Positions 11,974 to 47,829 are shown, counted from the first letter of the stretch. The stretch is 59,012 nucleotides of DNA from Candidatus Moraniibacteriota bacterium (GCA_903893925.1 CAITOC010000012.1:1-59012), one strand, 5' to 3'. Notes: generated by a model from the letters alone, not told the origin. Translations and numbers: made by a program.

Positions 11974-11989
11974 TTATGAACTCATACCG

Positions 11990-12081
11990 AACTTGATGTG
12001 ATATATTGCTACCGGAGGAGTTCGCCCCGCGAATGCCGGGGCGAACTCTTGAACGTAACGGAGGTTCAGGTAATTTAGTAT
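11990..12081 (+). repeat. Family-1 REP/MITE-like repeat, copy 1
   Basis: ~92 nt, near-identical to 14775..14868 and to the reverse complement of 47573..47666. The core hairpin is GAGTTCGCCCCG-N7-CGGGGCGAACTC (12018..12048). Confidence 0.85.
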
Positions 12082-12164
12082 CAGCTCATCCGACCTTTCT
12101 CCTCCGCCTACTCCCCTTTCCGAGGGGAGCTCCCCGCCTTGCAAGGTGAGGGGTTGGAGTATTC

Positions 12165-12683: not shown

Positions 12684-12790
12684 GTATTTGATAACAATAT
12701 CTGTCTTTCCCCGTATATCCCATGAACCGGATCATGCCGAACCCCACCGATTTTCTCGCTGACACTCTTCATTTTACCGTATCTCTTTCC

Positions 12791-12820
12791 GTACTACCAT
12801 ATTACGTAATATGGTAGTAC
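12791..12820. promoter_or_regulatory. Perfect 30-bp palindrome (candidate operator)
   Basis: GTACTACCATATTAC immediately followed by GTAATATGGTAGTAC, with no T-run. It lies ~110-135 nt upstream of the CDS starting at 12683. Confidence 0.4.
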
Positions 12821-12863
12821 GCTCGTGGTTCATCAGTTAAATATCACAATAAACTATTTTCAC

Positions 12864-14607: not shown

Positions 14608-14774
14608 GATGAGCCACCTCCCGTGGCGTACCTATTGATTGATGGAAATGAACTACGGGGTGAGCATAACAAAAATAGCATCCGCCCACAAGGTCCCTCC
14701 AAAACGGGGGAAACAGACAGTCGACCGTCTGTTTCTTGTATCAGCACGCCTTTACTGCCATATTATACCGAAAT

Positions 14775-14868
14775 AACTTGATGTGTTATTTATTGCTACC
14801 GGAGGAGTTCGCCCCGCGAATGCCGGGGCGAACTCCTGAACGTAACAGTGATTCAGTTAATTTGGTAT
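14775..14868 (+). repeat. Family-1 REP/MITE-like repeat, copy 2
   Basis: Carries a 13-bp stem GGAGTTCGCCCCG-N7-CGGGGCGAACTCC (14804..14836). The flanks aacttgatgtg...gctaccgg and ctgaacgtaacagtgattcag are shared with the other copies. Confidence 0.85.
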
Positions 14869-14931
14869 TACGTACTATGGCAGCAGGGTTATCTCGTACG
14901 ATCGATATATCGTGCAAATCGAATTTTGATA

Positions 14932-39141: not shown

Positions 39142-40179
39142 CTACAAACGTGGAACAGAATCTCGTTCACTGTCTTTTTGATGTTTCCCGAGACCGAATG
39201 CGAGGAAAATAAATCCGGCGGCGAGAGCGATGAGAAAGAATGCTTTGCCGATCGCCGGAAGCGACAGCGCCACTAGTCCGGAAAGGATGGAAATCGCCGT
39301 GTAGGAAGTCATGATAACACGATCAGAAAGACCTGCCTGTCGCAGGCGGTCATGCAGATGACGTTCATCCCCTCCGTGAAACGGCGACTTGCCGGCGCGG
39401 ATTCGTGCCATGATCACGAAGCACGCATCGAGCACCGGCACGGACAGCACGAGTAAGGTTGTCGCGATCTTGGCGCCGGAAAAAAGCGCGAGCGCCGCCA
39501 CGCCGAAACCGAGAAAATACGCACCGGATGTCCCCGCCAGGAGCCGCGCCGGTGGTACATTGAACACGAGAAATCCAAGCGAAAGACCGGCGAAGACACA
39601 CGCGAGAATGGCAACCGTCGGCTGATTCACTTCCGGTCGAAGACTGACAAAAAACAACGTGACGAACGCCGAAAGTGATACGCCTCCCAAGAGACCATCC
39701 ACCCCGTCGGCCCAGTTCATCGCATTCATGATGAGAAGCGTGAATACGATACCGACAAAAAGACTGACCCATACGGATGTTTCGGGATACAGAAACCATG
39801 GATCACCGAACGGGTTCGTCAGCACCCATGCCCGCATACCGGAGAAAAAAATAAGTCCTGCCAGACCGATTTGGAACAATATCTGCGGCTTCCATCCGAT
39901 CGGTGTCCGGTCATCGAGTGTCCCAAAAAGGAGAACGAGACACCCTCCCGCGATCAAACCGAGAAGCGGTCCGGAAAATACGAGCTCACGATTGAAAACG
40001 ATCGCGACCAAAAACGCCCCGACCAACGCCGCTCCACCGAGCCGTGGAAGCACTTTGTGCGTACGGCCAGCCTCAATCCTCGACACAGTGAACCGCTTCC
40101 CCACGATTGGGACGATCTGAAACAACGCGACTGCGGTAAAAAACGATATCAGAAATGGGAAAAGGAATTGCTCAAGCAT
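39142..40179 (-). CDS. WecA/MraY-family (GT4) polyprenyl-phosphate N-acetylhexosamine-1-phosphate transferase
   Basis: NAMNWADGVDGL and DERHLHDRL motifs. ORF trimmed to MLEQFLFPF because the upstream extension only translates the palindromic repeat. Confidence 0.8.
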   Translation of the reverse strand: MLEQFLFPFLISFFTAVALFQIVPIVGKRFTVSRIEAGRTHKVLPRLGGAALVGAFLVAIVFNRELVFSGPLLGLIAGGCLVLLFGTLDDRTPIGWKPQILFQIGLAGLIFFSGMRAWVLTNPFGDPWFLYPETSVWVSLFVGIVFTLLIMNAMNWADGVDGLLGGVSLSAFVTLFFVSLRPEVNQPTVAILACVFAGLSLGFLVFNVPPARLLAGTSGAYFLGFGVAALALFSGAKIATTLLVLSVPVLDACFVIMARIRAGKSPFHGGDERHLHDRLRQAGLSDRVIMTSYTAISILSGLVALSLPAIGKAFFLIALAAGFIFLAFGLGKHQKDSERDSVPRL

Positions 40180-40199: not shown

Positions 40200-40231
40200 G
40201 GGAGTTCGACTCCCATGGGAGTCGAACTCCC
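40200..40231. repeat. Family-2 REP-like perfect palindrome
   Basis: GGGAGTTCGACTCCC-AT-GGGAGTCGAACTCCC. Each 15-nt half is itself a 5-bp hairpin. Confidence 0.9.
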
Positions 40232-40237
40232 TTATAT

Positions 40238-40930
40238 TCAATTTTCCAATAAATATTTTTGAAAGTCCTTCTTCTCCTTAAAATAAAGCGTATTAGAATC
40301 AAGAAATTCCTTATAAGCAGATACGTCTTTAAACTGTCCAAGAATAACATCTTTGTTACAAAGAGATCCTTCCTGTCTTTCTCCTAGATAATCCGTTGCA
40401 CTACAATATGTCCACTCGCTTTCTTGATTCAATAAAGTCTTTTCTTCATCCAAATCCCCATACCCGTGAATTCGGTAATTTCTATTTACATAGACAGAAA
40501 GATGCAGAAGATACTCATTCGAATCTATGTGTATCGACTTAAACTTTCCCTGAAAGAGTGCGCCCGAACGCTCATACCGTTTATTGAAATAATTCGTGTA
40601 GCCCGTTCCGATTTTCTGCATGAACCGTTCGATACCTTTTTCCGATATCTGCTTTACGATAAGATGATAGTGGTTCGGATTTAAACAATACGCAACAATT
40701 TCAACAAGTGCTGAAAAAGGGAGTTCGACTCCCATGGGAGTCGAACTCCCTTTTTTCATCTCACGCAAACTAAGTTCATACAAACTTCCGATTGGCTCGG
40801 ACCTCTTGAACGCTTGAAGGCAAGTTAAGAATCTCCGATAATCCACCTCATCAATAAAAACTTCGCGTTTGTCGACGCCACGATTATAAACGTGATAATA
40901 TTCGCCATTAGAGAGGCTTGTCTTTCTCAT
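40238..40930 (-). CDS. IS200/IS605-like Y1 HUH transposase (REP-associated tyrosine transposase type)
   Basis: EYYHVYNRGV, HUH motif in NPNHYHLIV, and downstream Tyr-containing YVNRN region. The gene is visibly more AT-rich than its neighbours. Confidence 0.75.
   Translation of the reverse strand: MRKTSLSNGEYYHVYNRGVDKREVFIDEVDYRRFLTCLQAFKRSEPIGSLYELSLREMKKGSSTPMGVELPFSALVEIVAYCLNPNHYHLIVKQISEKGIERFMQKIGTGYTNYFNKRYERSGALFQGKFKSIHIDSNEYLLHLSVYVNRNYRIHGYGDLDEEKTLLNQESEWTYCSATDYLGERQEGSLCNKDVILGQFKDVSAYKEFLDSNTLYFKEKKDFQKYLLEN
40714..40755. repeat. Family-2 palindrome copy embedded in frame in the transposase CDS
   Basis: AAAAA-GGGAGTTCGACTCCCATGGGAGTCGAACTCCC-TTTTT encodes KKGSSTPMGVELPF. Confidence 0.9.
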
Positions 40931-40967
40931 ACAGATGCGTTCATAGGAGTCGAACTCCTGAACCAGA

Positions 40968-42683
40968 TCACTTCCTCCGCACCTTTTCCGTCACCCAAAA
41001 TTCGCCGAAGTACTTGCCACGGAGGATGCGGGTCTGCGCGTCGAGCGCCGGGATGGCCATCAGGAGCGACACGAACGGCGCGAGGAACCACTGTGCGAAC
41101 ATGAACACCGTCTTCCACCGGCTATACCGTTTCGGCCGCTTCGGCAACATCAGAAAAGAGAGGAACACGAGCGTGACAAGTCCTCCCATGGAGAGCGTCA
41201 TGAGGACCCGGGTAACGACCGGCAGATTATGTGCGAGCACGCTCTCATTGAATACCGTCCCACCGAGAAAGAGCGGGAGCCAACCGAGAAACGACAGGAT
41301 GAGCGGGGCCGTCGCCCACGACATGTGTCCTTCGAGCGTCTCCTCGGTGACCCGAAGTTTCTTGCTGAGTGGCACCTGCTTGTCGGGCCACAGGGCACGC
41401 ATCATGACCGGGAAGTTCTCGATGCCATACGCCCACCGACGATTCTGCTTATAAGCATTGCCGAGGGTTTTCATATAGGTGTCGGCCAGTACCGCGTCGA
41501 GCGAGACCGGGAGCGGAATGAGCCGGACTTTGTAGTCGCCATGGAAATACGAGAAGGCCTTCCAGTAGATGACGGAGTCCTCGGAAATCATGTTCACCGG
41601 CCAATATCCGACGCGCACCAGTGTGTCGAACGGCTCGGAATGCGACGAGAACGTAACCATCTCGCGACGGGTCCCCTGATACATGTGCCAAAACGATGAG
41701 CCAGTCACGGTGACACGGACCAAAGCATTGGTATCCCACAGGTTATTATGATACATCGGGAGTGGCTGGTATGCACGCCTCAATCGATCCGGATCGGTGA
41801 CATAGGCGTATGCGAGGGCAGAAAAGTATTCCGGATGCGCAACCGTGTCACAATCGAAGTTCGAGAAAATAACCCGGTCATACGGGATATTTCGTTCATC
41901 GAGATAGATGCGGAGTTTCTTGGCCGCATACCCGGCATTCGACGCCTTGCACTTGAGTTCGCCCGGAGCCACTTCGTGTGTGGTCACGAGGAAATCCCGG
42001 AATATGCCATCGAACTTTTTCCGAAGGATTTCGATTTTCGGCAGTCGGGTCTCTTCCGGTTCGCGTTCCTCCGTCGCGAGAATGATAATCATCTGCGATT
42101 TCGGAAAAGTCGATTCAGCGATCGATCGTATGGCCTGTTCTATGATATCCGCGCCTTCCCCGACTGTCGGCAGAAGAACGGCATGGATGATTTCCTGATG
42201 ATCCATGATCTCTTCTTCGTGCTCCAGAAGTTCCGTGATCTCTTGGGAATGGCGGATGAGTTCTTGCCGTTCTCGACGGACGATCATCTTCTGCCGAAAA
42301 GGCATCTTCTCCTCACGGAGGACACGACGAAGGAATGCCGCCCGATCGAACAATTCCTGACGGTACCGCGTCAAATCACGGGAGCGTACCAGTCGCTCCC
42401 ACCAGTTGATTCGCATACCACGTTTGAGTCCTCGGTACGACAATACCGAAAAGAACGTCACGTATGCGGTCAGAAACAGCCAATAGATGTCGTAAATGAT
42501 GACGAAGGTAGCGGCAGCAAGCGGTGCGAGCCACGAGGCGAGCAGTATGCCGGACACCACGGACCACGAAAGTGTCCCGGGAATAATCTCGAGTGCCCGC
42601 TGGATACGCCGTTCCCGTTTATCGGTCGTCTTCGGATTAGGGAACTGGAATAACTCCTCTTTGTCGTATTTCTTATCAGGCAT
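40968..42683 (-). CDS. Membrane-embedded GT2 glycosyltransferase (processive synthase-like)
   Basis: QxxRW motif (KQNRRWAYG), a cytosolic GT-A region between N- and C-terminal TM bundles, and FDCD in the DxD position. Confidence 0.7.
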   Translation of the reverse strand: MPDKKYDKEELFQFPNPKTTDKRERRIQRALEIIPGTLSWSVVSGILLASWLAPLAAATFVIIYDIYWLFLTAYVTFFSVLSYRGLKRGMRINWWERLVRSRDLTRYRQELFDRAAFLRRVLREEKMPFRQKMIVRRERQELIRHSQEITELLEHEEEIMDHQEIIHAVLLPTVGEGADIIEQAIRSIAESTFPKSQMIIILATEEREPEETRLPKIEILRKKFDGIFRDFLVTTHEVAPGELKCKASNAGYAAKKLRIYLDERNIPYDRVIFSNFDCDTVAHPEYFSALAYAYVTDPDRLRRAYQPLPMYHNNLWDTNALVRVTVTGSSFWHMYQGTRREMVTFSSHSEPFDTLVRVGYWPVNMISEDSVIYWKAFSYFHGDYKVRLIPLPVSLDAVLADTYMKTLGNAYKQNRRWAYGIENFPVMMRALWPDKQVPLSKKLRVTEETLEGHMSWATAPLILSFLGWLPLFLGGTVFNESVLAHNLPVVTRVLMTLSMGGLVTLVFLSFLMLPKRPKRYSRWKTVFMFAQWFLAPFVSLLMAIPALDAQTRILRGKYFGEFWVTEKVRRK

Positions 42684-47541: not shown

Positions 47542-47572
47542 TCTCGATAGGATGGATCGTTCTCAATAAATC

Positions 47573-47666
47573 ATACCAAACGAACTGAATCACTGTTACG
47601 TTCAGGAGTTCGCCCCGGCATTCGCGGGGCGAACTCTTCTGGTAGCGATAGACAACACATCAAGTT
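47573..47666 (-). repeat. Family-1 REP/MITE-like repeat, copy 3 (inverted)
   Basis: Reverse complement aligns with copies 1 and 2 over ~94 nt. Hairpin at 47606..47636. Confidence 0.85.
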
Positions 47667-47829
47667 GTCTCGGTATGAGAAATGGAAAACGAGTACTGGA
47701 ATGAGTGATGAATCGAGTATGAATGAATTATTTATTTCAGATTTACGTATAACTGAGTATATCGTGGTGAGATTTGAGATAGATACTTAGCATACGCTCT
47801 CCCGAGCGCTAAAGAAGTTCGGCCATATC

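Follow-up and report, generated by a model that had tools for sequence, protein, structure and literature searches.

A RAYT-like Y1 transposase gene with conserved hairpins in and around it in a Candidatus Moraniibacteriota genome

The long-lived partnership that can form between a domesticated transposase and miniature repeats is best exemplified by RAYT-REP systems. To our knowledge, the spread of REP repeats has never been directly demonstrated. Palindromic repeats can also be found inside genes: Rickettsia palindromic elements (RPEs), reportedly described by Ogata et al. in 2000, are said to lie in frame in protein-coding genes. RPEs are 100–150 nt long, and we know of no cognate transposase for them. 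The reference descriptions of REP-RAYT and REPIN-RAYT systems are those of Nunvar 2010 (PMC2817692), Bertels & Rainey 2011 (PMC3116915) and Ton-Hoang 2012 (PMC3333891), with E. coli TnpA-REP/YafM (4ER8) as the solved structure. Class-2 TnpA-Y1 proteins are recognized by the signature Y---NP (Quentin, Siguier, Chandler, Fichant 2018, PMC6006769). Among them, TnpA-REP subclass 2.4 (Bertels RAYT group 4) has REPs in frame within tnpAREP; its motifs are NH[IFV]H, WQ and YIxNNP, and its REP insert is located between the HuH motif and the tyrosine (PMC6006769).

The window analyzed here is a stretch of 59,012 nt, contig C12 of an ultra-small Candidatus Moraniibacteriota bacterium with a 1.18-Mb genome (88 contigs, 98% complete, 51.5% GC). 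On its minus strand, positions 40238..40930 form an intact open reading frame of 230 aa that matches Pfam PF01797 and that we describe as a RAYT-like Y1 HUH transposase gene. It is flanked upstream by a GT2-family glycosyltransferase gene (40968..42683, minus strand; Pfam Glyco_trans_2_3, identical contig) and downstream by a WecA-like Glycos_transf_4 gene (39142..40179, minus strand), which are the left and right borders, respectively, of an insertion site. As the initial annotation had noticed, the gene is more AT-rich than its neighbours: it has 38.2% GC, at the 1.9th percentile of the genome (mean 51.7%, sd 5.0 in 693-nt windows), and a GC3 of 38% compared to 69% in the adjacent GT2 gene. 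Homologues of the protein carry the names Moranbacteria, Parcubacteria and Patescibacteria. Contigs assembled from other samples match the locus at every base, and the context is the same in all 23 contigs read (23/23).

The Pfam profile Y1_Tnp (PF01797) matches the protein with 32.5 bits (cut-off 23), though only over residues 76-150 and profile positions 41-120; a segment encoded by a palindrome separates the N-terminal strand from the rest of the match. The NCBIfam equivalog model NF047646 (REP_Tyr_transpos) matches residues 76-156 only and yields 22.9 bits, below its cut-off of 80. The HMM search proposed in the initial annotation thus places the protein in the Pfam family and outside the RAYT equivalog. 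H87 and H89 (NHYH), Q127, Y147, N149 and N151 are invariant in an alignment of 21 homologues. The HUH motif H87-Y88-H89 in NPNHYH is encoded at 40664..40672 (minus strand) and the catalytic-tyrosine motif Y147-V-N-R-N151 at 40478..40492 (minus strand), the latter on helix 138-150 of the predicted model. Judged by this conservation, the catalytic tyrosine is Y147 in SVYVNRN. Hence the HYH part of the Y1 signature initially proposed for this gene holds, and YHVYNRG, which had been cited as part of that signature, is a conserved N-terminal strand rather than the catalytic motif. The class-2 signature Y---NP is replaced by Y147-V-N-R-N-Y, or YVN[RK]N[NYH] in the relatives, which retain the Asn but have no Pro.

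An AlphaFold2 model of the protein (pLDDT 69.8, i.e., moderate confidence; pTM 0.74) has the expected order of strands and helices, with disordered segments at residues 51-71 (palindrome-coded, pLDDT <50) and 156-172. The best Foldseek match of this model is E. coli TnpA-REP with its REP hairpin (4ER8_A; E 5.2e-5, TM(target) 0.58), followed by the IS608, ISDra2 and IS200 transposases (E 5e-3 to 1e-2). A PDB search by sequence only returned nothing useful, apart from one spurious L2 match. The protein does not behave as a canonical IS200 TnpA: it is closer to 4ER8 than to IS608 and ISDra2, and the genome comprises two divergent copies only. Profile match and predicted fold support a RAYT-like Y1 HUH enzyme, which fails strict membership of the curated RAYT family.

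A perfect 32-nt palindrome, GGGAGTTCGACTCCCATGGGAGTCGAACTCCC, is located 6 nt past the stop codon and ~20 nt before the wecA-like start (40200-40231). It consists of two hairpin units, GGGAG-TTCGA-CTCCC and GGGAG-TCGAA-CTCCC. The initial annotation had reported it correctly, and zero matches to it are expected by chance according to 100 shuffles. An exact second copy (40719-40750) lies inside the coding sequence as the core of a perfect 42-nt palindrome (40714..40755) with A5/T5 arms. This longer palindrome spans exactly 14 codons in frame (KKGSSTPMGVELPF, residues 59-72), of which the core encodes GSSTPMGVELP. The gene had been described as bracketed by its palindromes; this is right for the flanking copies but understates the layout by leaving out the in-frame copy, which the initial annotation had listed as a finding of its own. 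On the other side of the gene, an imperfect single-unit hairpin (40939..40963; GTTCAGGAGTTCGACTCCTATGAAC on the coding strand) includes the half-site GGAGTCGAACTCC at 40946-40958, 15 nt from the ATG. When folded as ssDNA, the downstream palindrome reaches -16.8 kcal/mol (z -8.6) and the palindrome in the coding sequence -22.3 kcal/mol (z about -8), while the upstream unit is a weak, bulged hairpin of -6.2 kcal/mol. The exact gene-side variant, with its G-C closing pair and CATG centre, occurs at three sites only in the genome. No GTAG-like foot tetranucleotide is conserved next to these three exact copies, of which the flanks read TTTGT/TTATA, AAAAA/TTTTT and TCTCA/AAAAG.

Several further properties of these hairpins were recorded. 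For the unit GGGAG-TTCGA-CTCCC, which looks like a tRNA T-arm, derivation from a tRNA was considered; its loop counts 5 nt instead of 7 nt. With its A5/T5 arms, the palindrome at 40714-40755 scores as an intrinsic terminator on both strands; if active as RNA, it would cut the transposase transcript after codon ~72. The downstream palindrome was rejected as an intrinsic terminator because the coding strand has no T-run. The in-frame palindrome also affects public annotation. A 165-aa form of the protein (P0003) is found on 179 contigs with DNA identical to the window and results from the start codon chosen by gene callers, namely the ATG at the palindrome centre behind an SD-like GGGAG. In hundreds of public assemblies, this annotation artefact leaves out the N-terminal strand (window 40736-40930). 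An inversion or deletion between the two identical palindromes was ruled out as the origin of P0003, given that the DNA is the same as in the window.

A metagenome contig of a related species (L105) carries a 79%-identical ortholog at the same site, in the context RmuC-x-GT2-[gene]-WecA-DUF192. The neighbouring proteins of the two contigs are 80% (WecA) and 84% (GT2) identical. The dN between the orthologs is 0.139 for the Y1 gene; the neighbours have 0.171 and 0.122, and dS is saturated. As the ortholog co-diverged with its flanks, the gene appears to have been inherited vertically under purifying selection since the lineages split. On these substitution rates it has evidently evolved under purifying selection and no faster or slower than its neighbours.

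The palindromes have followed a different course. Outside the in-frame palindrome, the coding sequence is 73% identical to that of L105, and third codon positions only 50%; the in-frame core is identical at 32/32 positions and part of a 55-nt identical run. The downstream palindrome is likewise identical at 32/32 positions. The chance of such identity is about 4e-5 (P) per palindrome, and the alignment demonstrates that the palindromes at the Y1 gene have in all evidence been held invariant as DNA. Upstream of its gene, L105 has a full double-unit palindrome, AGGAGTTCGACTCCCGTGGGAGTCGAACTCCT, at the place of the half-site, so that complete palindromes are present on both sides of the gene; the window lacks 17 nt of it. 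Because the ortholog carries the complete double-unit palindrome there, the half-site before the start, correctly located earlier, is best understood as a 17-nt deletion derivative, i.e., a truncated palindrome. These data also bear on chance or misassembly at repeats as the source of the palindromes. Many contigs of this metagenome-assembled genome do end in a repeat, but no match is expected in shuffles, independent assemblies from other samples contain identical DNA and the palindromes are kept in the orthologous contig, by which this explanation is effectively refuted.

A Y1 homologue (E <= 1e-10) is missing in seven of the eight same-genus genomes (94-100% complete), while all eight possess the wecA-like gene. 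In five of these congeners only ~10-45 nt separate the GT2 stop from the wecA start. Since GT2 and wecA are thus directly adjacent in five sister species, the Y1 gene is an insertion, which corroborates the acquisition that had been proposed from its composition. Two other congeners carry unrelated cargo in the same spacer, namely an ORF (G006) and an MNT/HepT toxin-antitoxin pair (G003; L098 581-1504). The contig of the eighth congener stops 78 nt upstream of wecA, which leaves it outside the GT2-wecA spacer comparison. The GT2-wecA spacer is an insertion hotspot. The G006 cargo (L099 814-1501) is an ORF of ~155-189 aa with a TACTACCATATTACGTAATATGGTAGTA palindrome before it. The native spacer of G007, ACGAAATCGCGAAACACGT-ATG, picks up right after the downstream palindrome of the window (ACAAAATCACAAAACAGTCT-ATG). 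At this junction, the empty site of G007 and G001 reads GGGGTTCGGCCTCC, an 11/14 look-alike of one hairpin unit, which suggests that the insertion may have taken place beside a pre-existing hairpin unit. The observations on inheritance are mixed: a same-site ortholog with co-diverged flanks exists, yet most congeners are without a homologue, five sites are empty and the composition is deviant. Sequence comparison with the congeners and L105 shows a gene that must have entered the GT2-wecA spacer as a cassette before the two species diverged.

Such a history raises the alternative of an autonomous IS200-like insertion sequence, in which the upstream and downstream hairpins are the two termini of the element and the gene mobilizes itself instead of serving dispersed repeats. 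The Pfam match is indeed to the IS200-like family, but the protein is 230 aa long with a C-terminal extension and its predicted fold is nearer to TnpA-REP than to IS608 or ISDra2. As in IS200, both ends of the gene have a hairpin no more than ~20 nt away, but the hairpin unit is also dispersed without the gene. Likewise, comparison with five congeners marks the cassette as inserted, and the gene is AT-rich and patchy in genus and order; against this, the same-site ortholog has co-diverged with the flanking genes, contigs from other samples show no variation at the locus and the genome contains one copy plus one 40%-identical paralogue, with no near-identical copies. An autonomous element is thus an unlikely explanation of the present locus, although the cassette may have an IS200-like past.

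The arrangement is not confined to the window. We scored perfect hairpins of >=9 bp at 80 related loci from Moran-, Giovannoni-, Azam-, Yonath-, Campbell- and Paceibacteria genomes, 76 of which were scorable. A hairpin is present <=40 nt upstream of the gene in 71% (54/76) of these loci, <=40 nt downstream in as many (71%; 54/76) and in the loop before the HUH motif again in 54/76 (71%), at a median of 16 residues before the first His. A fourth site, just past the catalytic Tyr (median 9 residues after it), is occupied in 38% (29/76), and hairpins elsewhere in the coding sequence are limited to 2/76 (3%). Hairpin density amounts to 2.75 per kb at the gene compared to 0.54 per kb in the flanks, a 5-fold difference. 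Inner stems are identical in 65% of the pairs within a locus but in 0.4% of the pairs between loci. By this survey, the layout in the window is one instance of what appears as a Patescibacteria-wide four-site pattern; its Y1 gene is without the second, post-Tyr hairpin site in the coding sequence. In Moranbacteria relatives (L004, L005, L010; P0005, P0010), the post-Tyr site holds another palindrome, e.g., GAGGCTAAGCCTCC...GGAGGCTTAGCCTC, translated as LEAKPP..GGLASK. The GAGGCTAAGCCTCC...GGAGGCTTAGCCTC palindrome also occurs in the present genome (C47:35328, C61:4105), distant from any Y1 gene.

The 15-nt hairpin unit of the Y1 gene recurs as the core (A1 type, AGGAGTTCGACTCCC-NNNN-GGGAGTCGAACTCCT) of a dispersed element of ~110 nt with conserved arms, ...ATACCGAAATAACTTGATGTGTTGTATATCGCTACYAGAGGAGTTCG[core]CGAACTCCTGAACGTAACAGTGATTCAGTTCATTTGGTATAAG. 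A whole-genome nhmmer census counted 92 distinct element loci (8.2 kb in total), comprising 30 A1-like and 47 A2 (GCCCCG-CGAATGC-CGGGGC) cores; 17 of the 92 are at contig ends. Three copies with an A2-type core, identified in this census and by repeat search, lie in the window at 11981..12084, 14762..14871 and, inverted, 47570..47679. Compared to the gene-side variant, dispersed A1 cores have another outer pair and another loop, and the A2 cores, which are more common, share the stem base only. Instead of a GTAG/CGTC-type foot, dispersed copies carry CYAGAGGAGT...ACTCCTGAACGTAAC. The sequence CGAACTCCTGAAC, the flank of the upstream half-site, is the right arm of the element, in line with the earlier remark that this flank is shared with dispersed repeats.

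The element is far more frequent in this genome than in its relatives. Exact A1 double-unit cores number 17 here (G000) but 0-1 in each of 30 relatives, and the full element has at least 30 matches (87 first-look candidates) compared to 0-3 in each of eight congeners; this copy-number contrast sets one RAYT-bearing genome against congeners, among fragmented metagenome-assembled genomes in which repeats assemble poorly. Congeners without the Y1 gene still hold low-copy elements. The searches thus show, at sequence level, that the hairpin unit of the Y1 gene forms the core in part of an element family; of the genomes searched, only this one carries the family in abundance. The dispersed double-unit cores and element loci are what connects the enzyme to the repeats, a link that the initial annotation had drawn from the shared flank, and the hairpin unit is represented in the rest of the genome.

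Both ends of the elements (window 11981-12084, 14762-14871, 47570-47679 and 89 further genome loci) have outward-facing TTTGGTATAAG/TAT or TTTCGGTATTAT motifs that are TGGTATAAT-like and resemble extended -10 promoters; therefore, the elements may supply promoters to flanking genes. In 25 of the 92 copies the element lies in a long stop-free frame, but these were rejected as in-frame insertions, being positioned before real starts or in antisense frames. Credible in-frame copies are limited to the RAYT gene and a PIF1-like helicase. The latter (C86:1327-1360) has an inverted-order palindrome variant, GGGAGTCGAACTCCC-TGAA-GGGAGTTCGACTCCC, in frame (KKGVELPSGSSTPKG) in its C-terminal linker (Pfam PIF1 2.4e-30). 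Other palindrome families were observed in the genome as well: GTAGAGACGNNGCATGCNNCGTCTCTAC (~6 copies) has a GTAG...CTAC 'double foot' like subclass-2.4 REPs, and TACTACCATATTATATAATATGGTAGTA, GTCACGTCGTTCGCGAACGACGTGAC and AAGGCTAAACCTTCGNCGAAGGTTTAGCCTT count ~12, ~6 and ~5 copies, respectively. Example sites of these families are C22:26931, C54:1311, C55:5640, C76:27901 and window 12790-12821.

The genome encodes a second Y1 protein on C62 (C62:29508-30347; locus L002 1131-1972), a 209-aa paralogue with 40% identity to the first; a near-identical second copy of the Y1 gene was not present in this 98%-complete genome. The paralogue has a different hairpin, CTCCGAGGAC-N-GTCCTCGGAG, with 17 sites genome-wide and 0 in the control. 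Three copies of its hairpin, CTCTCCGAGGACNGTCCTCGGAGAG, flank the paralogue, and each is followed by TTTTGTGGYATAATA right before an ATG. The combination of hairpin and TTTTGTGGYATAATA is possibly a hairpin-plus-promoter module with leaderless starts. A comparable pattern, two paralogues each with their own repeat family, is shared with the REPIN-RAYT systems of Pseudomonas (PMC3116915).

This pairing of paralogues and hairpin families is also relevant for a second alternative. Here the palindromes would serve the host in regulation or structure (as terminators, mRNA stabilizers or promoter-bearing modules) and would have spread by other means; the Y1 protein would be a nuclease domesticated for some unrelated function in the host, with the copy in its gene merely tolerated. 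The terminator score of the in-frame palindrome agrees with such a role, but the downstream palindrome lacks a T-run on the coding strand. The TGGTATAAT-like -10 boxes at the element ends, the variant in the helicase linker and the elements in congeners without the gene also suit host elements. It is harder to reconcile with them that each of two paralogues has a separate hairpin family at its flanks, that the hairpins of 76 relatives keep their positions while differing from locus to locus, and that they are five times denser at these genes than in the flanks. We consider this alternative quite improbable.

We propose that the locus is probably a RAYT-like unit ('REPtron'), consisting of a single-copy, selectively maintained gene for a Y1 HUH ssDNA endonuclease/transposase and its cognate hairpin. 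The arrangement of a REP-associated tyrosine transposase, as initially assigned, is retained with respect to the nearest fold (4ER8), the hairpins flanking the gene and the dispersed unit, and lost with respect to the NCBIfam cut-off and the class-2 proline. The enzyme would bind the hairpin in single-stranded DNA, and would nick and rejoin the strand beside it through Y147, with a metal bound by H87 and H89. By doing so, it would copy hairpin-bearing elements around the chromosome. The hairpins at its own gene would persist through continued re-templating by the enzyme, or owing to a cis-acting role in the expression of the gene. The in-frame palindrome may be tolerated because it encodes what the model predicts to be a disordered surface loop. 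As to causal direction, we infer that arrival of the gene led to the repeat expansion.

A more far-reaching reading is possible, though we hold it with considerable doubt in its entirety. Rather than being passengers, the fixed hairpins in and around the gene might make up a cis-acting module that is conserved in an enzyme family found throughout Patescibacteria. The enzyme might recognize the hairpins of its own gene, which could provide self-limitation (premature termination or occupancy at the A5-palindrome-T5 site) or serve as protected master copies, and enzyme and hairpin might co-evolve as a unit. Arrival of this unit might then have driven a ~30-fold growth of promoter-bearing ~110-nt elements, rewiring intergenic regions of a 1.2-Mb genome.

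The locus comes with three natural comparisons: sister species in which the site is cleanly empty and repeats are nearly absent, an ortholog of which the protein has drifted with unchanged hairpins, and, within this genome, a second paralogue that has a repeat family to itself. Together, they make the assignment of enzyme to repeat testable with few oligonucleotides. In addition, the locus illustrates that constraint at the DNA level can dictate ~14 codons of a protein.

Compared to the known systems, the locus shares with REP-RAYT a Y1 HUH enzyme in one or few divergent copies, flanking palindromes that are also dispersed in the genome, a separate repeat family for each paralogue, an apparently vertical inheritance after arrival and 4ER8 as the closest solved fold. 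Unlike REP-RAYT, the present protein scores below the cut-off of the NCBIfam equivalog, carries YVNRNY in place of Y---NP, counts 230 aa with a different C-terminal extension and is accompanied by hairpins that lack a GTAG-type foot and also lie in frame inside the gene. Moreover, it is patchy within the genus with clear empty sites, and its host is a Patescibacteria (CPR) genome of 1.18 Mb. With the TnpA of IS200/IS605 elements (IS608, ISDra2, IS200; PDB 2A6M, 2XM3, 2F4F), it has in common the HUH/Y1 fold and Pfam family, subterminal hairpins near both gene ends and a cassette that was once inserted without obvious target duplication. It differs from these in not being multicopy, in its length (230 aa versus about 130-155 aa), in a Y motif other than YxxxQ, in having no tnpB partner and in hairpins that are perfect palindromes dispersed alone. 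As with RPEs, a palindromic repeat is read in frame and contributes a surface stretch that the protein tolerates, here in the RAYT itself and in the PIF1-like helicase linker; the unit, however, is 15-32 nt long and tied to a Y1 gene.

In a literature search, no paper was found on such a layout in CPR/Patescibacteria, the nearest being Quentin 2018. The taxa of subclass 2.4 are Cyanobacteria and Bacteroidetes, and Parcubacteria are not mentioned in PMC6006769. The motifs of the present protein are NHYH, FQ and YVNRN, its insert precedes the first HUH-motif His by 16 residues rather than lying between HuH and Y, and relatives of its clade also carry post-Tyr sites. Nonetheless, the REPs inside the gene, the unbroken frame, the peripheral variable region and the additional flanking REPs are all as in subclass 2.4 (PMC6006769), the published analogue of this locus (Quentin 2018).
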